This document shows positions 1-10,888 of a DNA stretch of 10,888 nt, piece after piece (positions within the stretch are counted from its first letter, which is position 1; the number at the start of each line of letters is the position of its first letter). Under the pieces are notes generated by a model. It searched no databases, was not told the DNA's origin, and saw nothing but the letters and a program-made list of their open reading frames with translations. The position numbers and the translations under genes were made by a program. The DNA is from a virus (taxonomy: Duplodnaviria; Heunggongvirae; Uroviricota; Caudoviricetes), in IMG/VR virus record IMGVR_UViG_2529293142_000034, positions 1 through 10,888 of that record; one strand, 5' to 3'.

Positions 1-1263
1 ATGAAGCTCACAGCCAGACAGGTCGAGACCGCAAAGCCAAAAGAAAAAACCTACAAAATGGCCGACGGCGGCGGTTTGTATCTCGAGATTTCGGCTAAGG
101 GCTCTAAATACTGGCGCATGAAATACAGACGCCCCTCAGACAAAAAAGAGGATCGCCTCGCTTTTGGTGTTTGGCCTACTGTGACGCTAGCTCAGGCAAG
201 AGTAAAGCGCGATGAGGCTAAAAAGCTGCTAGTGCAGGGCATTGACCCAAAAGCCGAACAGAAAGAAGTTCAGGCCGAGAATTCGGGGGCATATACATTC
301 GAAACCATTGCTCGTGAATGGCACGCCAGTAACAAGCGCTGGAGTGAAGACCATCGATCGCGCGTTCTTCGCTATCTTGAGCTTTATATATTCCCTCACA
401 TTGGTTCGTCCGACATTCGTCAGCTCAAGACTAGCCACCTATTAGCCCCGATTAAAAAAGTTGATGCAAGTGGTAAGCATGACGTCGCGCAGCGTCTTCA
501 GCAGCGTGTCACGGCTATCATGCGTTATGCAGTACAGAACGATTACATCGACTCAAATCCAGCCAGTGATATGGCTGGTGCTCTATCTACAACCAAGGTG
601 CGACATTACCCCGCTTTACCCTCTAGCCGATTCCCTGAGTTTCTTGCACGTCTTGCTGCATATCGTGGCCGTGTAATGACACGGATCGCGGTTGAGCTTT
701 CCTTACTAACTTTTGTGCGTTCCAGTGAGTTGCGTTTCGCGCGTTGGGATGAATTCGACTTCGATAAATCTCTATGGCGCATACCTGCAAAACGAAAAGA
801 AATTAAGGGTGTGCGTTATTCGTATCGTGGTATGAAGATGAAAGAGGAGCATATCGTTCCGCTGAGTCGTCAGGCGATGAATTTGTTAGACCAGTTAAAG
901 CAGATTAGTGGTGATAAAGAGCTGCTTTTCCCGGGGGATCATGACGCAACTAAGGTTATGAGTGAAAACACAGTGAATAGCGCATTGCGTGCGATGGGAT
1001 ATGACACAAAAACCGAAGTCTGCGGGCATGGGTTTAGGACGATGGCACGTGGTGCGCTGGGTGAGTCAGGGTTATGGAGTGATGATGCTATAGAACGCCA
1101 ACTGAGCCATTCAGAACGTAATAATGTTCGGGCTGCCTACATTCACACTTCAGAGCATTTAGATGAGCGTAGGCTGATGGTGCAGTGGTGGGCTGATTAT
1201 TTAGATATAAATAGAATGCAATATGTGACACCGTATGACTTCGCAAAGGAAGAAAATCTGTAG
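1..1263 (+). CDS. int: Tyrosine recombinase, P4-type integrase (420 aa)
   Basis: Intact 420-aa ORF starting at ATG position 1. N-terminal region (LYLEISAKGSKYWRMKYR...) is typical of P4-family integrases; C-terminal catalytic region has HGFRTMARG (His-x-x-Arg) and a downstream Tyr (VRAAYIHTSEH). Confidence 0.93.
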   Translation: MKLTARQVETAKPKEKTYKMADGGGLYLEISAKGSKYWRMKYRRPSDKKEDRLAFGVWPTVTLAQARVKRDEAKKLLVQGIDPKAEQKEVQAENSGAYTFETIAREWHASNKRWSEDHRSRVLRYLELYIFPHIGSSDIRQLKTSHLLAPIKKVDASGKHDVAQRLQQRVTAIMRYAVQNDYIDSNPASDMAGALSTTKVRHYPALPSSRFPEFLARLAAYRGRVMTRIAVELSLLTFVRSSELRFARWDEFDFDKSLWRIPAKRKEIKGVRYSYRGMKMKEEHIVPLSRQAMNLLDQLKQISGDKELLFPGDHDATKVMSENTVNSALRAMGYDTKTEVCGHGFRTMARGALGESGLWSDDAIERQLSHSERNNVRAAYIHTSEHLDERRLMVQWWADYLDINRMQYVTPYDFAKEENL

Positions 1264-1302
1264 AAATTATATGCTAACAATATATAAAACTCTTATAGTA
1301 AT

Positions 1303-1332
1303 AAACCATCCATTATTTTTAATGGATGGTTT
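1303..1332. terminator. Perfect 12-bp inverted repeat (AAACCATCCATT / AATGGATGGTTT) with a 6-nt loop, between the convergent int and cargo genes; putative bidirectional terminator
   Basis: Palindrome read directly at 1303-1314 and 1321-1332, between the int stop (1263) and the cargo gene stop (1362-1364). The stem is AT-rich and there is no clean U-tract, so terminator function is uncertain. Confidence 0.4.
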
Positions 1333-1361
1333 AAGATGAATTACTAGTTTTATGATTGAAT

Positions 1362-3657
1362 TTAAATTACTTCGACATTTTGATCATCATTAGCACTTTG
1401 CTGAACGTCGACATTAATGTCATCATCATTCGGCAGAGCCTTATAATATTCTCCCATCATCATTTTATAATGTGCAGCATTATCGCTGTATTCAAATATT
1501 TTCTGGAATATATTGAGATTTTTACTAACCGAGTTTTGGTCTAGAGCAATGTAAAGATCGTCATTTGAATGATGTGAACCGTCATTAATCCAAGATATCA
1601 ATGAATTAAATGCTATTTTTTCATCACCATCAAAATGTTTTTCGAGTTTCCATACATTAAATCCACCTAAAATTTTAAAGTAATTTTCAAGAATTCTTCT
1701 CATTGTGTTTTGTACTGTTGTGCAATTAATATCAGGGCGCCTTATCTCACTCCATAGTAAATCATATGAAGTTTTAATTGGATTGCATGCATGGCTTTCA
1801 ATGAACGATAATTTATCCTTTTTCCTAATGACCCAAAATGTTTCATCAGGACGAGCAGTATCTAAATTTCTATTCATATCGAAAGTTAACTCTTTATGAA
1901 AATAAATATTGTGAGTTAGGAAAAAGACCTGTTTTATACGGCCATTATTGTCTCTAATGTCTTTTATAAGTTTTTTCATTAATGAGCTAACTATAAACAG
2001 AATATCACTATCTAAACTTGATATAGGATCATCAAAGACAACTACTCGATCGTTCATTACACCAGATGTTGAATTACTTCCTTTGATGAGATTATAGAAA
2101 TATAGGAATGTGATAAAAGTTTTCTCACCCTCACTGAGTGTGCTTAGGGCATTATCACCATTTTCACGTACGATTCTATAGCTAAACGAATCGGATGTCG
2201 GTGCAAGGCTAAAATTTTTGAAGCCAAATGATAAAAGTATCTTATTTATAGCAGTGATTGTTGGCGTGACACTGGTTCTTTTAGATTCCTCGCTGGATAT
2301 ATTTTCAATGATATCATCTAATCTGACTTTGTCTTTTTCTAAACCCTTAATTAACCCTTCCTTAGCTCTATTTAACTGTTCCTTATCAGTATTATATTTA
2401 TTTATTTTATCAGCCAGTTCAACTTTAACTATATAATGCCATATTTCTTTTGTTAGTTTTTCTCTTTCCATGCTCCTGTTTTTGTATAGTTCATTATTTT
2501 CAAAAACTTGATTGTTAGCTGCAAGAATGATGTCTAATAATTCTTTGCCAGGCTCTAGAAGTCCTGTCATAGCGACAGGTGTACTTAATTCAGCCAATTT
2601 TCTTTTTGCTTCATCTATATTCCTTGATAATATTGATAGAATTAATTTGGATTTTGTGTTAAACAAATCCAAATCAAGGAAGGCATAGTTCCCTTCATTT
2701 ATTTTCGCAACATATTCATCAAATAAACGATACTCATGAGTATAATTTTTTAGTAATACATTAATGCTTTCTGTTTTTTCTAAATATTTTGTGTCAAAGT
2801 AACTTTCTAAATCCGATTTCAAACTACTGGGCGTATTTTGTTGGCAAAATGGACATTTGGTTTCAAGGTTATCATAGTACTTTATCCCTTCTTTAACCCA
2901 GTCACTGTTATCTAGTTGCCTTATGATTTCGGCAACGCTTGCATCTTCTTTTCCAAGAATTTTCTCTTTCCATATTTCATCGTCAACTATTTTTTTATGT
3001 TGCTAAAATTTGGTAAGGGAATTATATTGTGAACTGTTAGCGAGTCTGAGTAAACACTACCAGCCTTCGATATTAAGTATGGTAACTGGTGTAAATCTAC
3101 TTCTTTTGAATATAGCTCCTCTAATACCTTTGATTTGAATTTTTCCTGGCTGCTTCTTAAACCTTCAAATGCTTTATAGAAGTAATCATCATGTTTTTCT
3201 TTTGATTCCAGCAATCATTTTTGAAATCCAATTCAATTTTTTCAAGTTTTTGATAGATACCTAAATTTGCATTATCATTGTTATTTAAATTTCTTTTCTT
3301 GGAATCTATTGAGCTTTGCTCTTTATCCCTTTGTTGTATCAATTTGTCTATGTTATCTGTGAGCTCTTTTGTTTCTTCACCTAAAGTAAAAATACCTTTA
3401 ATACTATCTCCAGAAAAATTATTTACAACAAAATCCCTGTTGTAGACATAAGGAGTTAATTGATTGTTGTTTTTCCATTTAATCTGGCAAGTTGGAAAGC
3501 CTAAAGCATTATGAATTATTTTGCTAATTGTAGTTTTTCCAGCACCATTTGAGCCATATATGTAATTGATTTTCATTAGAGGCATCATATATTGAACGTC
3601 ATTTCCATATGAACCGGCTTGAGAAACGCTTATAGACTCTATCATTATCTTTTTCAT
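1362..3657 (-). CDS. Cargo gene: RloC/PrrC-like ABC-type ATPase with central CPFC motif and C-terminal putative nuclease domain (about 765 aa when joined); interrupted in this sequence by two homopolymer frameshifts
   Basis: Three adjacent minus-strand ORFs (3157-3657, 2987-3214, 1362-2822) join into one frame if one base is added at the T5 run 3194-3198 and at the T7 run 2990-2996. Walker A YGSNGAGKTT is at 3535-3558; reading the 1362-2822 frame upstream of its TTG start gives ...KYYDNLETKCPFCQQNTPSS (CPFC at 2844-2855). Signature-like LSEGEK, Walker B/D-loop VVVFDDPISSLD (about 2025-2045) and H-loop FFLTHN follow. Family assignment (AAA_13 / RloC-PrrC-like) is from motif recall, not a search. 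Confidence 0.7.
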
Positions 3658-3736
3658 CCTTTAGCTTTGTGTGAGGGGCGTGTCAGTCACGGATTACTAT
3701 TGCAGAATATCCATTTGTTTCAAGATATGTTTTTAT

Positions 3737-3780
3737 ACAGTGGTAAATAAACACAGTGGTAAATAAACACAGTGGTAATC
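3737..3780. repeat. Tandem direct repeat, 16-bp unit ACAGTGGTAAATAAAC x about 2.7, lying 80-125 bp upstream of the cargo gene start
   Basis: Exact copies at 3737-3752 and 3753-3768, partial third copy at 3769-3780 (ACAGTGGTAATC); a related CAAGTGGTTTAGTG follows near 3791. Confidence 0.8.
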
Positions 3781-3880
3781 ACAAAATATTCAAGTGGTTT
3801 AGTGTCATAGAAAGTGAGCATCTACGCAAGAATGTACTAACTCTGAGTTTACAAAATTAAATAATTAATATGCGCGCGCA

Positions 3881-3899
3881 GTGCTTTCCCCGCCTCGCC
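3881..3899 (-). other. cos site: P2/P4-type 19-nt cohesive-end sequence GGCGAGGCGGGGAAAGCAC
   Basis: Reverse complement of 3881-3899 is exactly GGCGAGGCGGGGAAAGCAC, followed on that strand by CTGCGCGCG..., matching my recollection of the P2/P4 genome left end. It sits between the cargo locus and psu, as expected for an integrated P4. Confidence 0.8.
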
Positions 3900-3999
3900 C
3901 GCCCGCTTTGCGGGGCGGTTTTAATGCAGTTGCACTGACACGCTCAGACCGCGCCGGGAATGGCGCGGTTTGCAGAAAATGAGGCAGGGAAACGCATGC

Positions 4000-4033
4000 A
4001 AAGCCATGCACCTTATCGATGCATGGCTTTTTT
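4000..4033. terminator. Intrinsic terminator-like hairpin (10-bp stem AAAGCCATGC / GCATGGCTTT, 11-nt loop) with a 3-prime T-tract on the plus strand and an A-tract on the other side; probably bidirectional, just downstream of psu
   Basis: Stem pairs 4000-4009 with 4021-4030, followed by TTT at 4031-4033 (T-run 4028-4033). Lies about 30 bp beyond the corrected psu stop (4064-4066). Confidence 0.5.
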
Positions 4034-4063
4034 CAGTAAAAACGGGCGGATTTTCGGGGAATT

Positions 4064-4635
4064 TTACACTGACTGACGTGATGCCAGTTGCGCACTTTTA
4101 CGCGAAAAAATCATGTTCTGCGCAGGGGTGAATTTTTCACGGCTGTCATCCACCGAAGCCGCGTCAGGCCTGAATCCGATGGTCGTTAAAATGTCGCTAT
4201 CCTGTGCGGAATAATTAATTTTTCCCCCTTCGCAAGCCAGGACAGAAGGGCTTCACGCAGGGCATCTGTGGCACGCTGTATGGCACAGTTTCGGGCAATG
4301 GCCGTCAGCTCACTGTATCCCATCAGCTCCGGTGCCAGTGCCGCCGCCAGTGCTGTGCCGTGCTGCTGCATAAAATCATTCAGCCGGTCGCGGATGCTGA
4401 TGTGCTGAACGGCTTCATGCGAACGAATATAACGACCGGCGGCCTGATTCACCTGCCATTTTCTGACTTCGATAATATTGCGTAATTCGTCCAGGCGACT
4501 GACGTTTCTGCCTTCCCCGGACAGAAGCCGCAGATATTCCTGTTCGGCCGCAGCCAGCTCATTTTTGCGTTGCAGCCATGCTGCTTTGTTATTCTGACAG
4601 GTGTCAAAGGCCTGCTGTAAGGCTGTGCTTTCCAT
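4064..4635 (-). CDS. psu: Psu polarity-suppression / capsid-decoration protein (190 aa after a one-base correction); C-terminus out of frame here because of a homopolymer indel
   Basis: ORF 4186-4635 (149 aa) ends ...LSWLAKGEKLIIPHRIATF*. The adjacent frame reads KINYSAQDSDILTTIGFRPDAASVDDSREKFTPAQNMIFSRKSAQLASRQSV* to a stop at 4064-4066. The join needs one extra T in the T5 run 4219-4223 and gives 139+51 = 190 aa, the length of P4 Psu as I recall it. Confidence 0.85.
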
Positions 4636-4707
4636 CGTTATCTCTTTCTCATCATGCTGAAGAATAAAATACGGTGTGCGGCGACGGCCGGTGTTAACCG
4701 GCAGCCC

Positions 4708-5208
4708 TCATTCCAGACGCAGCGAATATGATTGTGTTTTTAAGCGTACTGGCGGCAGTTCCTGTTTTTCATGCAGGCTTTCTGCCAGTTCGTCCGGCGT
4801 GACCGGGCGGACAATGAAACGGTTGATGGTCTGAAGCGTTTTAAACACCAGACCACAGCCCGGATCCGTGCACACATAAAAACGCTCGGTGACTTCCTGA
4901 GACAGACGCCTCGATGTTCTTGACAGTGCAAGGCCTTTACATCTCCGACAACAATATCCGGTAACAAGCATTCTTTTCGGGCGTTTCATACTGCCGGAGG
5001 CTGACGTCAGTGAATCGCGGTATCTCTGTTTGCCTGAAATGTATTCCATTCCTGAATCTTTACTGTCAGAGAAAAAGCTTTCACTCGCTTCAAATGTCGC
5101 AGAGCAATAAATATTCCGGCACTGTGCAATCATTATCTTGGTGCCATCGTCCATGAAATGTGCGCGGCGGGTGTGAGCAACATGTCCACACGACGGGCAG
5201 TAAATCAT
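4708..5208 (-). CDS. delta: Delta late-gene transcription activator with two tandem Ogr-type zinc-finger domains (166 aa)
   Basis: Intact 166-aa ORF with two C-x2-C-x22-C-x4-C modules (CPSCGHVAHTRRAHFMDDGTKIMIAQCRNIYC and CCRRCKGLALSRTSRRLSQEVTERFYVCTDPGC). Its ATG (5208-5206) overlaps the sid stop as ATGA. Confidence 0.9.
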   Translation of the reverse strand: MIYCPSCGHVAHTRRAHFMDDGTKIMIAQCRNIYCSATFEASESFFSDSKDSGMEYISGKQRYRDSLTSASGSMKRPKRMLVTGYCCRRCKGLALSRTSRRLSQEVTERFYVCTDPGCGLVFKTLQTINRFIVRPVTPDELAESLHEKQELPPVRLKTQSYSLRLE

Positions 5209-5938
5209 GACAGCAGTCCTCTGGCCTTAAGCTCTGCTCCCTGCTGGTCTATTTTGTCCTGCCACACCTTGCGCTGTGCCGGTGTGCCTGCCACCTCATA
5301 ATCCATGTGCGGGAGTGTTGCCGCTGACAGTCCGGTCAGCCGGAGAACCGGCTCACCGGTGAGGCTGATTTGCATCTGTTTTATTTTCTGTTCCAGCGAT
5401 GATTTCACCTGCTGCATGACAGCCTTTTCCGGTGCGACGTAGCCCTGATGGCCGGTGGCGTTGGCGAGCGGATTTTCCTGTACCAGAATGCTCAGATGCA
5501 TTGCCCGGACAAGCGCCTCACAGGTTTCATTCAGGGCGTGTTCCAGCTCATGCTCTGCATACAGACTCAGCAGGTGATGATGTGCCTTCCGGTAGGCGGT
5601 GGCCGTGCTGTCACACGCCCCTTTCAGGCGTTCACGTTCAAAATTCAGCACCACGGCCAGATTGTCATATTCCTGTACCAGCTCCCGGCGTGCCACGCGC
5701 TCAATGTGGCGCTGTTTCAGCTCGTCGCTCAGGACACCACCGGCTGCACGAAAGGCTGTGCGCCAGTCATCAGCGTCATTTCCGTCGGCCTGCGCCAGCG
5801 CATTTTTTCCTGCTCTGCCCGTTCAATGGCCTTGACGGTCTCATCCATCAGTCGGGCGTTCTCAAGGTGGGCGGCTCTGGCCTTTTCCAGTTGTGCCAGT
5901 GCGGGTTGCAGATATTCAGGGATGGTGTTGTCAGACAT
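5205..5938 (-). CDS. sid: Sid capsid size-determination (external scaffold) protein (244 aa after a one-base correction); split in this sequence by a homopolymer indel
   Basis: ORFs 5729-5956 and 5205-5696 join if one T is added to the T6 run 5803-5808: ...AIERAEQEK + NALAQADGNDADDWRTAFRAAGGVLSDELKQRHIER + VARRELV.... Starting from ATG 5938 (GAGGAG Shine-Dalgarno 7 nt upstream) gives 45+36+163 = 244 aa, the P4 Sid length as I recall it. Confidence 0.85.
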
Positions 5939-5972
5939 TTTCCGGCTCCTCGTCACTTCAGGTTAAGAAAAT

Positions 5973-6028
5973 TGTGACGTACACCGGACAACAACACGAC
6001 GCATTGCAGATGTGCCAGTCCTGACACA
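5973..6028 (-). promoter_or_regulatory. Candidate late promoter for sid-delta-psu with two TGT-N12-ACA activator sites of the Ogr/Delta type, centres 38 bp apart
   Basis: TGT-N12-ACA read at 5973-5990 and 6011-6028. If the distal site is centred near -55, the start of transcription falls about 5964 and the proximal site near -18, leaving a roughly 25-nt leader before sid ATG 5938. The -55/-18 arrangement is recalled for P4 late promoters. Confidence 0.55.
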
Positions 6029-6106
6029 GGAGACTCATCCTCAGACCGGCAAGCCAGGAAAAGGTCGCAGGAAAAACCGGCTTACTGTTTGTTTTTTTAT
6101 ATTTTA

Positions 6107-6220
6107 CTGTTCACCTCTGTTCACCATAAGAAAAAAGATAAGTAATACAGTAAGTTAAAGGGTGAACAATCGCAGTAATGACTGTTCACCGTCTGTTCAC
6201 CACTGTTCACCCGTTCATGG
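6107..6220. repeat. Phased 9-mer repeats CTGTTCACC (five direct copies, one inverted, one degenerate) in the divergent control region between sid and alpA
   Basis: Direct copies at 6107-6115, 6117-6125, 6182-6190, 6193-6201 and 6203-6211 (10-11 bp spacing within each cluster); inverted copy GGTGAACAA at 6161-6169; degenerate CGTTCATGG at 6212-6220. Existence is certain; function is inferred. Confidence 0.8.
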
Positions 6221-6295
6221 ACTTTTTGTGCTGTTTATTACTTTTTATTTTTATTAATTAACTGAAATAAATAAGAAAAACAATTTGTATTTCAC

Positions 6296-6301
6296 TATAA
6301 T
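6296..6301 (+). promoter_or_regulatory. Consensus -10 hexamer TATAAT facing alpA; candidate early promoter element
   Basis: TATAAT at 6296-6301 in an AT-rich stretch; no convincing -35 at 17 bp spacing, so this is weak. Confidence 0.25.
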
Positions 6302-6490
6302 TTTTTCCAGCTCCTTCCAGAGCGTTTTTAAAAGCTATCTGGCGCTGATGTGCAAAAAACACACAGCCATTGTAAGGCTGCCGGAACAAATCCCCCCTGT
6401 TGCGTCTGCCAAAAATATTCACAAAATAAAGCGCTACCCCGAAGCCGGACGGACTTATCCGGTGCTGTATGGACATTACGAGGTAGCCCG

Positions 6491-6760
6491 ATGCTAAGCC
6501 TGTTTTTTCTCCCCGTCTCCTGCCCCTGTGACGCCACTGATGCCGCTGCCGGACATCACGCAGGTAGCGTTTTTTTACGCTGCCGGAAGTGATGCACCTG
6601 TGCGGCCTGTCACGCTCGACCATCTATGAACTCATCCGTAAGGGGGAATTTCCGCCGCAGGTGAGTCTTGGCGGTAAAAAATGTGGCCTGGCTGCACTCT
6701 GAAATCACCGCATGGATGGCCGGGCGCATTGCCGGACGCAAACGGGGGTACGACGCATGA
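6491..6760 (+). CDS. alpA: AlpA-family (Vis/excisionase-like) helix-turn-helix regulator; reading frame broken twice at homopolymers in this sequence
   Basis: Core at 6580-6702 reads [34 protein letters not shown]...; removing one A from the A6 run 6676-6681 continues as ...[29 protein letters not shown] (stop 6758-6760), a close fit to the AlpA-family pattern. No in-frame start precedes the core unless one T is added to the T7 run 6570-6576, which joins it to ATG 6491 (GAGG 7 nt upstream). N-terminal boundary is uncertain. Confidence 0.65.
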
Positions 6761-7158
6761 TGATGCCCGCTCTGCAAAAAGTCCCTTTTTCTGGCTTGCC
6801 TTTTTCCGGCATTTGCGGATATAGTTTTTCTGCTGCCGCAAAATCGGCAGCCGGGCGTGGAAACCCGAGCAATTCACAGGCGGCATATGACGCGCCATGC
6901 GTCTTTTTTTGTGTCGCAATCAACGCCACAGAGCGCCAGATTATGGTGTGGTGTGTGGTCAGTCGTGCAGATGGCATTCCGTGCATCCTGCCCGCGTCCG
7001 CTCATTATGCCGCAGAGTCAATGGTAGCTCAGGCGGGGCAGCCTCCGGGCTGGCCGGTATCCTGTGAAGCCGGTATTTCCACCCCCGTCTGGGCTATCGC
7101 CATCGAGCGTGGAAACTCCGGCGATAGCGTTATTTGCTATTCACAGGAGGCTGCCATC

Positions 7159-7356
7159 ATGGCTACAACCCTCACCCCCTCACACCCTGAATTTGTCTTT
7201 GTGTTTGCGGCTGTCCGTCGCGCAGACCGTCATCCCCGTATCTGCATGCTTCGCACCGTCGCCGGTGATGAACGCAGTGCCCGCCGTTCCCTTGTCCGTG
7301 ACTATGTGCTCTCCCTTGCTGCCCGTCTGCCGGTGGTGGAGGTGTCCCGTGCGTAA
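7159..7356 (+). CDS. Small early protein (65 aa), possibly an Icd-like cell-division inhibitor
   Basis: ATG 7159 preceded by AGGAGG at 7145-7150 (8-nt spacer); sequence [65 protein letters not shown]. The stop overlaps the next gene start. The Icd-like label is from weak recall of prophage annotations. The same frame is open upstream to 6757, so the true start could lie further upstream. Confidence 0.4.
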
Positions 7357-7636
7357 TAAAAAAGCCCCTCAGACCGTCTCAGCGCGTCATGACGCCCGTG
7401 AACACCTCAGCATTGAGGCTTACCATAAGCTCAACCGCGCCAGCGCCGTATCCCAGTTTGTTGGGGGTGATTTGATTCACCGTGAACTCTCCGGCCTGCA
7501 TCAGCTCTACATTCCGCATATTTTCAGCTACCTGAATGAAGATATTGATTTTGTGCTGAATGAGCTGAAAGCCAAAGGCCTGTGCCGCGATTTTCTCGCC
7601 CAGCAGAAAGACCGGGGAGACAGGACGCATGTTTGA
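7349..7636 (+). CDS. Small early protein (95 aa), possibly the epsilon (derepression) homologue
   Basis: GTG 7349 with GGAGG at 7338-7342; no in-frame ATG exists downstream, so the GTG start is required. It overlaps the upstream stop (GTGCGTAA) and the downstream start (ATGTTTGA). The epsilon assignment is by position and size only. Confidence 0.5.
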
Positions 7637-8084
7637 TTTTCCCCAGCCCGGTGAGATTTACCGTTCTGCCGGTTTTCCCGATGTGGCCGTGGTCGGCATT
7701 CTGGAAGACGGTATTCCGTGGGAAATGCCGTACCGCTGCCCGGACATTGTCTGGAACCCGTACCGCCGTAAATTCAGTATCCTTGTGCGTATCCTCGCTG
7801 ACGGGCGCACCACAGACATCCCGCTGGGGCGTTTTCTGCGGGAATTTACCTGTGACCGTCCTGACCTGTTTAAACGCAGCCCCGTAAACCGGCATGCGGT
7901 ACTGAAAGAAATGGCCGGAGACCCGGAATTACAGAAATGGCGGGAGAAATATCTGGATATTTACCCGCAGGCCCCTGTTCCGGTCAGCCGGGCGGCACCG
8001 GTGGCGCGGGAATGGCGGGAAATTCCCCGCACGGAGCCTGACCCGGAAATCACCCCGGATAACAGTTACCGCAATTATCTGTAA
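7629..8084 (+). CDS. Conserved early-operon protein, 151 aa (orf151-like)
   Basis: Intact ORF whose ATG overlaps the stop of the preceding gene; its size and position before alpha match the P4 left-operon layout as I recall it. Function unknown. Confidence 0.65.
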   Translation: MFDFPQPGEIYRSAGFPDVAVVGILEDGIPWEMPYRCPDIVWNPYRRKFSILVRILADGRTTDIPLGRFLREFTCDRPDLFKRSPVNRHAVLKEMAGDPELQKWREKYLDIYPQAPVPVSRAAPVAREWREIPRTEPDPEITPDNSYRNYL

Positions 8085-8219
8085 TTAAAAAACGACCCCC
8101 GAAAAATTAAATGTGCGTATTCGCGCAGGGATACGCACGTCTTCAGGAGACGCAGATATGCCTTATCAGTTAATGCAACCGGCACGGAATGCAGTCATCT
8201 GTCACAGGGAGGAAAACAA

Positions 8220-8540
8220 ATGAAAACACCCTTACCGCCCGTCTTACGCGCTGCCCTTTACCGTCGCGCTGTCGCCTGTGCCTGGCTGACCGTGTGCGAA
8301 CGTCAGCACCGCTACCCGCATCTCACCCTTGAGTCACTGGAGGCGGCCATCGCCGCTGAGCTGGAAGGCTTTTATCTGCGCCAGCACGGTGAGGAAAAAG
8401 GGCGTCAGATAGCCTGTGCCCTGCTGGAAGATTTAATGGAATCCGGCCCCCTGAAGGCCGCGCCGTCGCTGTCCTTTCTCGGGCTGGTTGTGATGGATGA
8501 ACTCTGTGCCCGTCACATAAAAGCGCCGGTACTGCACTGA
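8220..8540 (+). CDS. Conserved early-operon protein, 106 aa (orf106-like)
   Basis: Intact ORF with GGGAGG upstream of ATG 8220; it ends 14 bp before the alpha start. Function unknown. Confidence 0.65.
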
Positions 8541-8554
8541 AGGAGAACAACACC

Positions 8555-10888
8555 ATGAAAATGAACGTAACCGCCACCGTCAGCCATGCACTCGGCCACT
8601 GGCCGCGTATCCTCCCGGCGCTGGGGATTCAGGTGCTGAAGAACCGTCATCAGCCCTGTCCGGTCTGTGGCGGGAGTGACCGCTTCCGTTTTGATGACAG
8701 GGAGGGGCGCGGCACCTGGTACTGCAATCAGTGTGGTGCCGGTGACGGCCTGAAACTGGTTGAAAAGGTGTTTGGTGTTTCCCCGTCCGATGCGGCCGCA
8801 AAGGTGGCTGCCGTGACCGGCAGCCTGCCCCCGGCTGACCCGGCAGTGACGGCTGCCGCCGGTGCTGAAACAGACGCTGCCCGGAAGAACGCCGCCGCAC
8901 TGGCACAAACCCTGATGGCGAAAACCCGTCCCGGAACCGGTAACGCCTACCTGACCCGCAAGGGCTTTCCCGGCCGGGAATGCCGGATGCTGACCGGCAC
9001 ACACAGAGCCGGTGGCGTGAGCTGGCGTGCCGGTGACCTTGTGGTGCCACTGTATGACGACAGCGGCGAACTGGTTAACCTTCAGTTAATCAGTGCTGAC
9101 GGCCGTAAGCGCACCCTGAAAGGCGGACAGGTCAGGGGCACCTGTCACACCCTTGAAGGACAGAATCAGGCCGGAAAACGTCTGTGGATAGCGGAGGGAT
9201 ACGCGACCGCACTTACCGTGCATCACCTGACCGGTGAAACGGTGATGGTGGCGCTTTCTTCCGTGAATCTCCTTTCTCTGGCCAGCCTTGCCCGGCAGAA
9301 GCATCCGGCCTGTCAGATTGTCCTTGCTGCTGACCGTGACCTCAGCGGTGACGGCCAGAAAAAAGCCGCCGCAGCCGCAGATGCGTGTGAAGGTGTTGTT
9401 GCCCTGCCGCCGGTCTTCGGTGACTGGAATGATGCCTTCACGCAGTACGGCGGGGAAGCCACCCGTAAGGCCATTTATGATGCCATCCGGCCACCGGCTG
9501 AAAGCCCGTTCGACACCATGAGCGAAGCGGAGTTTTCCGCCATGAGTACCAGCGAAAAGGCCATGCGTATCTATGAGCATTACGGCGAGGCGCTCGCGGT
9601 CGATGCCAACGGCCAGCTTCTGTCCCGCTATGAAAATGGTGTCTGGAAGGTGCTGCCGCCACAGGACTTTGCCCGGGATGTGGCCGGGCTGTTTCAGCGT
9701 CTGCGCGCGCCGTTCTCCTCCGGGAAGGTGGCCTCCGTGGTGGACACCCTGAAGCTGATTATTCCGCAGCAGGAAGCCCCCTCCCGCCGCCTGATTGGCT
9801 TTCGTAACGGCGTGCTCGACACGCAGAACGGCACGTTCCACCCGCACAGTCCGTCACACTGGATGCGCACCCTGTGTGATGTGGATTTCACCCCGCCAGT
9901 GGAAGGGGAAACGCTGGAAACCCACGCCCCCGCGTTCTGGCGCTGGCTTGACCGTGCCGCCGGTGGCCGTGCGGAAAAACGCGACGTGATTCTGGCCGCA
10001 CTGTTTATGGTGCTGGCAAACCGCTACGACTGGCAGCTCTTTCTGGAGGTGACCGGTCCCGGCGGCAGCGGCAAAAGTATCATGGCCGAAATAGCCACCC
10101 TGCTGGCCGGGGAGGATAACGCCACATCGGCCACCATTGAGACGCTGGAATCCCCGCGTGAACGTGCCGCGTTAACTGGCTTCTCACTGATACGCCTGCC
10201 GGACCAGGAAAAATGGAGCGGCGACGGTGCCGGACTCAAGGCCATCACCGGCGGCGATGCGGTGTCCGTTGACCCGAAATACCGGGATGCGTACTCCACG
10301 CACATCCCGGCGGTGATTCTGGCCGTGAACAATAACCCGATGCGCTTCACCGACCGCAGCGGCGGCGTGTCACGCCGGCGGGTGATTATTCACTTCCCTG
10401 AACAGATAGCCCCGCAGGAGCGCGACCCGCAGCTTAAGGACAAAATCACCCGCGAGCTGGCGGTCATCGTGCGTCACCTGATGCAGAAATTCAGCGACCC
10501 GATGCTCGCCCGGTCACTGCTTCAGTCCCAGCAAAACTCAGACGAGGCGCTGAACATCAAACGGGATGCCGACCCGACGTTTGATTTTATCGGCTATCTG
10601 GAAACCCTGCCGCAGACCAGCGGCATGTATATGGGGAACGCCAGTATCATCCCGCGCAATTACCGTAAATACCTCTATCACGCCTATCTGGCCTACATGG
10701 AGGCAAACGGCTACCGGAACGTACTCAGTCTGAAAATGTTCGGGCTGGGGCTGCCGGTGATGCTGAAGGAATACGGACTGAATTACGAGAAGCGCCATAC
10801 CAAACAGGGGATACAGACCAACCTGACGCTGAAAGAGGAAAGCTACGGCGACTGGCTGCCAAAATGTGACGACCCTGCAACAACCTGA
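8555..10888 (+). CDS. alpha: Alpha protein: P4-type primase/helicase (zinc finger + Toprim primase + D5-like NTPase), 777 aa, complete
   Basis: AGGAG 9 nt upstream of ATG 8555. N-terminal zinc-binding motif CPVCGGSDRFRFDD...CNQCG, Toprim-like acidic region (EGYATAL ... LAADRDLSGDG) and Walker A GPGGSGKS at 10055-10078. The 777-aa length equals that of P4 alpha as I recall it. Confidence 0.93.
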   Translation: MKMNVTATVSHALGHWPRILPALGIQVLKNRHQPCPVCGGSDRFRFDDREGRGTWYCNQCGAGDGLKLVEKVFGVSPSDAAAKVAAVTGSLPPADPAVTAAAGAETDAARKNAAALAQTLMAKTRPGTGNAYLTRKGFPGRECRMLTGTHRAGGVSWRAGDLVVPLYDDSGELVNLQLISADGRKRTLKGGQVRGTCHTLEGQNQAGKRLWIAEGYATALTVHHLTGETVMVALSSVNLLSLASLARQKHPACQIVLAADRDLSGDGQKKAAAAADACEGVVALPPVFGDWNDAFTQYGGEATRKAIYDAIRPPAESPFDTMSEAEFSAMSTSEKAMRIYEHYGEALAVDANGQLLSRYENGVWKVLPPQDFARDVAGLFQRLRAPFSSGKVASVVDTLKLIIPQQEAPSRRLIGFRNGVLDTQNGTFHPHSPSHWMRTLCDVDFTPPVEGETLETHAPAFWRWLDRAAGGRAEKRDVILAALFMVLANRYDWQLFLEVTGPGGSGKSIMAEIATLLAGEDNATSATIETLESPRERAALTGFSLIRLPDQEKWSGDGAGLKAITGGDAVSVDPKYRDAYSTHIPAVILAVNNNPMRFTDRSGGVSRRRVIIHFPEQIAPQERDPQLKDKITRELAVIVRHLMQKFSDPMLARSLLQSQQNSDEALNIKRDADPTFDFIGYLETLPQTSGMYMGNASIIPRNYRKYLYHAYLAYMEANGYRNVLSLKMFGLGLPVMLKEYGLNYEKRHTKQGIQTNLTLKEESYGDWLPKCDDPATT

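Follow-up and report, generated by a model that had tools for sequence, protein, structure and literature searches.

The window, by which we mean the whole stretch of 10,888 nt analysed here, is an entire P4-like satellite that runs from the start codon of int to the stop codon of alpha, the limits used for P4-like elements by de Sousa and Rocha (PMC8628076). Its genes and signals follow one another in the order int, cargo, cos, psu, delta, sid, vis, CI RNA, epsilon, orf151, orf106 and alpha. [quoted passage not shown] Positions 3900-10888 are 97.7% identical to the reverse complement of P4 (11624-4636) and positions 1-1211 are 89.5% identical to P4 int, while 1212-3880 is without a counterpart in P4. 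The att sites and the cis replication region crr are located outside the window, and the element within it carries no large deletions or IS insertions.

A P4-type tyrosine integrase of 420 aa is encoded at 1-1263 (plus strand), with 95% identity to residues 5-414 of P4 Int and the same length as the gene annotated in BEN5202 and WL164. Similarity to P4 int stops about 50 nt before the int stop codon (1211-1263), and the last residues differ from those of P4; this point marks where the hotspot is bounded on the int side, within the 3' end of the gene. Also intact are delta, the activator of helper late genes (4708-5208, minus strand; 166 aa, 98.2% identity to P4), epsilon, the helper derepression protein (7349-7636, plus strand; 95 aa, 98.9%), and the alpha primase-helicase (8555-10888, plus strand; 777 aa, 99.2%), as are orf151 and orf106. 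If int is left aside, these intact genes (delta, epsilon, alpha, orf106 and orf151) share 98-100% protein identity with P4. The P4 immunity RNA (CI; Rfam C4 antisense RNA) is intact at 7017-7104 (plus strand) and exceeds its Rfam gathering score, as do isrK at 6832-6909 and the c4-a1b1 targets at 6819-6871, and the immunity circuit appears intact. The exact 777-aa alpha is found in 994 blocks of public assemblies, whose carriers hold many different cargos (loci L139-L148), all distinct from the one seen here, and occupy several integration sites (ssrA/smpB, tRNA-Leu and others). Identical alpha proteins accompanied by many cargos illustrate rapid swapping of cargo on an identical backbone.

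The cargo of this element (1362-3657, minus strand) is a candidate single-gene defence system, PDC-S06, with a Pfam AAA_13 ATPase domain; it measures 761 aa in an intact relative and lies in three frames here. Its orthologue in BEN5202 is recognised by PADLOC as PDC-S06 (E = 6e-259) and by Pfam as AAA_13 (E = 3e-159). In the window, the gene is split by 1-nt deletions in T runs at 2990 (T8 to T7) and 3194 (T6 to T5), with tblastn matches in three frames. The cargo occupies the psu-int hotspot, which starts 7 nt beyond the cohesive end, and a defence hotspot between psu and int, adjoining cos, was described together with a cos signal common to P2 and P4 by Rousset et al. 2022 (PMC9122126). A gene with a defence-type domain is found between int and psu, adjoining cos, but in broken form. 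By the P4 map convention the mature left end lies at 3899 and the cargo comes first, its start codon some 243-255 nt from that end; in P4, gop begins at 247. This bears out the expectation, from a preliminary description of this DNA, that the cargo would sit at the extreme left end of the linear genome, next to cos.

The cargo is rare, being carried by 3 of 5426 complete E. coli genomes (best identity 99.0-99.4%). It is intact in BEN5202, intact within a decayed satellite in WL164 and interrupted by IS3 in RM10740. The cargo reading frame as shortened here was not on record in an exact-protein look-up. Upstream of the cargo gene, the variable left-end flank (3658-3873, minus strand) forms the start of the psu-int hotspot and departs from P4 once 7 nt past the cohesive end. 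It contains, between cos and the start codon of the cargo, 2.75 copies of a 16-nt tandem repeat, ACAGTGGTAAATAAAC (3737-3784), of which BEN5202 has one unit more; the repeat may have a regulatory role in the cargo promoter region or be a site prone to slippage.

The cohesive-end site and its flanks

A search of the whole window found one exact match to the cohesive-end 19-mer GGCGAGGCGGGGAAAGCAC, at 3881-3899 of the minus strand, with the cargo (1362-3657) on one side and psu (4064-4635) on the other. It was still the sole match when up to 3 mismatches were allowed, with 0.01 expected from 200 shuffles, and simple arithmetic puts the chance of an exact match in 2 x 10888 positions at ~8e-8. 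The same bases are the annotated cosL of P2 (NC_001895 1-19) and the first 19 bases of the P4 record (NC_001609), so that the exact cohesive end reported earlier between the cargo and psu is indeed there. In phage 186 the cohesive end is a variant with 2 substitutions, and its annotated cuts lie at the 5' end of the top strand and the 3' end of the bottom strand, giving 5' overhangs. Because the site is annotated in this way in 186, P2 and P4, we predict by analogy that staggered terminase nicks would fall at 3900/3899 on the minus strand and at 3881/3880 on the plus strand, again leaving 5' overhangs.

The 19-mer is embedded in a 55-bp block (3874-3928, minus strand) common to P2-like helpers and P4-like satellites. 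Read in P4 orientation, the junction consists of 29 nt of right-end flank, TGCATTAAAACCGCCCCGCAAAGCGGGCG, followed by the 19-mer and then by TGCGCGC (29 + 19 + 7 = 55 bp), and an alignment shows it to be common to P4, P2, 186 and five E. coli P4-like elements. We scanned IMG/VR with the exact 19-mer and retained 118 loci with full flanks, 14 P4-like and 104 P2-like; at every strongly conserved column, 3874-3928 agrees with the consensus of 14 P4-like and 100 P2-like IMG/VR sequences. In the passage of PMC9594776 that cites Ziermann and Calendar 1990, the P2/P4 homology at cos is given as 55 bp, equal to the size of the block in the window. Matches to P2-type prophages in E. coli likewise cover just query positions 4 to about 58-70 of 3871-4029.

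On the right-end side, similarity to P4 extends much further. The right flank at 3900-4190 is 99.3% identical to the P4 right end (291 nt), and the 159 bases at 3871-4029 match the cos region of the E. coli P4-like element JNE23-001 with 100% identity over 156 nt. The blastn match to 3881-3955 is phage fiAA91-ss (locus L002), not P4. Among the 14 P4-like IMG/VR loci, the psu side is conserved throughout and the cargo side is variable from +8 onward. Because P4-like elements vary freely there, the cargo side beyond +7 is probably dispensable for packaging. According to papers that cite Ziermann and Calendar 1990, transduction becomes more efficient when the cos flanks are longer.

Could the 19-mer be a chance match, or have another role, for example as part of a transcription terminator? 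On the plus strand, a predicted terminator-like hairpin with a T-run behind it (3899-3918) overlaps the edge of the site, as such a role would have it, but the expectation for a chance match is ~1e-7, the site stands between psu and the hotspot exactly as it does in P4, and a flank of ~150 bp is conserved with functional P4 and with helpers. The comparative data effectively refute this explanation, and we consider its probability negligible. Since the 19-mer, the 55-bp shared block and the distal TGCAT motifs described below are all present, we take 3881-3899 to be a genuine and complete P2/P4-type cos in an ordinary P4-like E. coli satellite, at which terminase would be expected to cut. In this reading the satellite is integrated in a chromosome of E. 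coli type, and 3881-3899 forms the core of a cos region of ~150 bp (roughly 3874-4023). The alignment with the P2 and P4 cos regions that had been proposed as a check leads to the same view, with the 19-mer identical and the block complete. The flanking packaging sequences, whose absence had been named as a reason to reject the site, are present as the block at 3874-3928 and four TGCAT motifs, and a test for such sequences can now be made concrete in these terms, as the 55-bp block plus TGCAT at fixed offsets.

Two inverted structures near the site are of less certain meaning. The repeat search returned a GC-rich inverted repeat, CAGACCGCGCC / GGCGCGGTTTG, at 3945-3972 (about -46 to -73 from the nick), while P2-like flanks have another GC-rich dyad (CGCCAG..CTGGCG) at a similar distance, with moderate information content at -66 to -50. 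We also considered a conserved hairpin at -19 to +1 (CCGCCCC..GGGCGG) as a structural element and rejected it: P2-like variation falls in the bulge or loop and also breaks some pairs, and no covariation was seen by eye.

Variant cohesive ends occur as well. The element of E. coli M19 (locus L011, NZ_CP010221.1) and similar records (H67-H80) have the sequence GGCGAGGCGGGGAGAGCAT, which differs by 2 substitutions, one of which (C to T at the last base) gives the GCAT ending of the 186 type. In M19-type P4-like elements this variant may be an adaptation to a different helper terminase.

TGCAT motifs at fixed distances from the nick

On the psu side of the site, four TGCAT motifs stand at defined distances from the nick. 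The nearest, at 3924-3928 (-29), lies within the 55-bp block. Three distal motifs (3996-4023, minus strand) appear on the plus strand as ATGCA at 3996-4000, 4006-4010 and 4019-4023, which correspond to -101, -111 and -124, and this region is the densest ATGCA cluster of the window. To compare helpers, the P2-like right-end flanks were reduced to 74 clusters with less than 80% mutual identity. In these divergent flanks a TGCAT starts at -29 in 69 of 74, at -101 +/-1 in 62, at -111 +/-1 in 57, and between -124 and -120 in about 50, while the stretch between -96 and -40 carries only ~0.1 bit per column. The offsets found in the window (-29, -101, -111 and -124) are the modal positions of the P2-like flanks, and TGCAT at fixed distances is also found in all P4-like elements examined. 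The distal-TGCAT criterion is an empirical one derived in this analysis and is not taken from a published definition.

Because the offsets are conserved in flanks that have otherwise diverged, we infer that the TGCAT array may be a terminase-recognition element with a cosB-like role. In the satellite, the array overlaps a perfect 11-nt inverted repeat, AAAGCCATGCA / TGCATGGCTTT (4000-4030), located just 3' of the psu stop codon and holding two TGCAT motifs within its arms, which looks like the psu terminator hairpin. A more specific proposal, which we put forward tentatively and think rather doubtful in its full form, is that phages of the P2 family have, as part of their packaging signal, a cosB-like TGCAT array. 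Its motifs would lie on the right-end side, 100-125 bp from the nick and roughly one turn of the helix from each other, at a distance that stays fixed in helper flanks that are otherwise unrelated, and P4-like satellites would copy the array by placing two of the motifs within the psu terminator hairpin.

The functional analogy would be with lambda cos (cosN + cosB), where a nick site also has repeated short motifs on one side. In lambda these repeated motifs bind the small terminase subunit. The analogy does not extend to sequence, since the lambda and P2/P4-type sites are unrelated and the lambda overhang is 12 nt.

In the searchable literature we found no published account of TGCAT motifs at the P2 cos. 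The fixed-distance array common to helpers and satellites might be the sole new item in this analysis, and the window is just one ordinary carrier of it. If the array is undescribed and is a binding site for the terminase small subunit, it defines what a satellite must mimic in order to be packaged. Such a role, if true, would also account for the opposite placement of the P2 and P4 hotspots relative to cos. P2-like phages have their conserved backbone on the left-end side (portal gene Q) and their hotspot on the right-end side, past the TGCAT array, whereas P4-like elements have the reverse arrangement around cos.

Packaging would then proceed as follows. The satellite would excise and undergo alpha-dependent replication. 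On the circular satellite, the terminase of a P2-like helper would recognise the conserved right-end flank, that is, the 29 nt by the nick and TGCAT at -101, -111 and -124, then nick 19 nt apart and package the DNA, so that the cargo ends up at the left and psu at the right. P2 terminase reportedly uses monomeric circles as its substrate.

Frameshifts and the mobility of this copy

The preliminary description had treated delta and alpha as intact and sid and psu as nearly so. The first part holds (166 and 777 aa), but sid and psu are each frameshifted by a 1-nt deletion in a T run. In psu (4064-4635, minus strand) the change is from T6 to T5 at 4219 and leaves 149 aa instead of 190, and in sid, the capsid-size determinant (5205-5938, minus strand), it is from T7 to T6 at 5803, after codon 45 of 244. 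That description did not remark that two further genes are broken, namely the cargo and vis/alpA (P4 ORF88, the excisionase; 6491-6760, plus strand). The latter is a pseudogene as read, with insertions at 6495 (T), 6565 (T) and 6676 (A5 to A6), a call that we based on three-frame translation and alignment with P4 and BEN5202, and on tblastn matches in three frames.

Because vis/alpA, sid and the cargo are frameshifted, excision of this copy is doubtful, small capsids could not be produced by it as read, and what would spread with the element is a cargo gene broken by two frameshifts. At best, the copy as read would be excised with help in trans, be packaged in P2-size heads and carry a broken cargo.

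The psu gene is dispensable for P4 growth, and psu mutants are viable. Mutants in sid are reportedly packaged as multimers in P2-size heads. Vis is required for excision of the P4 prophage according to the part of PMC2669165 that cites Cali et al. 2004, and the same article describes other E. coli prophages that excise without an excisionase at a low level, or with help in trans. De Sousa and Rocha 2021 (PMC8628076) find alpA pseudogenes to be frequent in P4-like elements that they deem probably functional, so a broken vis may be less important than assumed.

An intact cos does not settle the question of mobility, because clearly decayed relatives retain it. The WL164 element, which carries the same cargo, no longer has sid or epsilon and retains delta and alpha only as fragments, and it still keeps the exact 19-mer and the full block; the exact 19-mer is likewise preserved in the element at locus L016, whose sid is truncated and which is without alpha. 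Satellite mobility can therefore not be diagnosed from an intact cos, which is unusable as evidence of it, and the earlier reasoning from an intact site to an element that can still be packaged does not follow. Of the suggestion that the element is a mobilisable satellite and not a decayed remnant, the half that concerns the site stands, as cos looks competent in cis, and the half that concerns the rest of the element is put in doubt by four genes that are frameshifted as read. Our preferred reading, in which we have considerable confidence, is that the cos site would be competent in cis, that the mobility of this copy is compromised as read by the frameshifts in vis/alpA, sid, psu and the cargo, and that these frameshifts may be sequencing errors.

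Whether the cargo could spread hinges on whether the indels are real. The window has about 13 more indels than any comparable element. We count 14-24 indel events between it and each of seven other backbones, which differ among themselves by 0-13 events at similar substitution distance. Five of the indels alter the length of an A/T run of 5-8 nt by one base, and the frequency of change climbs with the length of the run (none of the 129 runs of four bases, 1 of 42 runs of five, 2 of 15 of six, 1 of 2 of seven and the single run of eight). A per-gene homopolymer comparison was also made, in which alpha has only 6 runs of at least 5 nt, too few for power. The region 6260-6680, which spans part of the P4 ori, the late leftward promoter region and vis, differs from that of IHE3034, the closest backbone, by 11 single-base indels and 4 substitutions, and this ratio is unusual for natural divergence. 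Two DNA patterns spanning the private indels of the vis region had zero exact matches in IMG/VR, and none of 5426 complete E. coli genomes matches 5700-7300 at more than 97.9% identity. In addition, the cargo has two frameshifts relative to the intact BEN5202 gene in an int-plus-cargo segment (1-3880) with just 4 substitutions, and defence pseudogenes are rare among P4-like satellites (PMC13586616).

All of these observations speak for a fully functional seven-component satellite in which most of the private single-base indels, in the cargo, sid and vis, would be errors of sequencing or assembly, and the view taken in the preliminary description would then be essentially right. Several points speak against such an explanation. 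The T5 allele of psu is real, since 73 blocks of independent public assemblies encode the identical 149-aa Psu (4186-4635), on elements whose cargos differ from this one; frameshifted alpA pseudogenes are frequent in nature (PMC8628076); two of the vis insertions lie outside homopolymer runs; and the indels are clustered and not evenly spread. Weighing both sides, we place a fully functional satellite somewhat below an even chance, and the narrower question of whether most private indels are artefacts is roughly evenly balanced. The carriers of the 149-aa Psu (loci L012-L017) have methylase, helicase, retron or gop-beta-cII cargos, and this form of the protein is either a recurrent slippage allele or one that has spread by recombination.

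If the indels are taken at face value, the element could instead be a decaying, immobile remnant, which has kept cos because decay is recent and which no longer uses it. Four genes, including the excisionase, are frameshifted as read, the decayed relatives in WL164 and at locus L016 also keep an exact cos, and the same cargo is interrupted by IS3 in RM10740, all of which would agree with decay. Set against this are the intact state of int, delta, epsilon, alpha, orf106, orf151 and the CI RNA, the absence of large deletions or IS insertions, and a size that matches P4. In P4 genetics, sid and psu are reportedly dispensable for transduction. Other E. coli prophages can also be excised with help in trans or, at a low level, with no excisionase at all (PMC2669165). 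We regard the remnant explanation as unlikely, and we retain the reading of a site competent in cis on a copy whose mobility is compromised as read.

Relation to other P2 and P4 elements

The closest known relative is the BEN5202 element at tRNA-Leu (NZ_LR740758.1, about 4937229-4948865), which has the same int and PDC-S06 cargo, with 4 substitutions in 3.9 kb, and a cos block that differs from that of the window by 3 substitutions in 159 nt. Its genes are all intact, with a cargo of 761 aa, Psu of 190, Sid of 244 and Vis of 88, and its immunity region differs in allele from 6200-7200 of the window. In BEN5202 the attL core is exact, the attR core has a 1-nt deletion, crr is present, and ~11.6 kb separate the cores, compared to 11,624 bp in P4. 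The element in the window would be 9 nt shorter than that of BEN5202, which is compatible with a genome of P4 size.

These features are those of a widespread family. A full P4-type cos region is present in 1069 of 5426 complete E. coli genomes and a full-length alpha in 1065 (~20%), and a further ~1,180 complete genomes have the P2-type match of 55-60 bp alone. The P4-like family as described previously (PMC8628076, PMC9122126, PMC13586616) has the same seven components, the same order, the same int-alpha limits and the same cos-adjacent defence cargo. Within this family a frameshifted alpA pseudogene is recurrent and a frameshifted cargo is rare; in the window, sid and psu are frameshifted as well. 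The architecture of the site is already known (Ziermann and Calendar 1990; Rousset et al. 2022; de Sousa and Rocha 2021), and the cargo adjacent to cos falls in the published defence hotspot, so that beyond correct annotation the significance of the site in this element is small.

Compared to P4 itself (NC_001609 / X51522), the window has the same 19-mer, all four TGCAT motifs, the psu terminator hairpin and the same position between psu and the non-essential left end. The base that follows the 19-mer is T here, as in P2, 186 and most P4-like elements, and C in P4. Owing to the different cargos, PDC-S06 here and gop-beta-cII in P4, the left flank follows P4 for 7 nt and then departs from it. 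The 55-bp block is also common to P2 (NC_001895), 186 (NC_001317) and other Peduoviridae, with 2-3 differences at -12 to -10. The 19-mer of P2 is identical to that of the window and that of 186 differs at 2 positions, and the TGCAT distances are the same.
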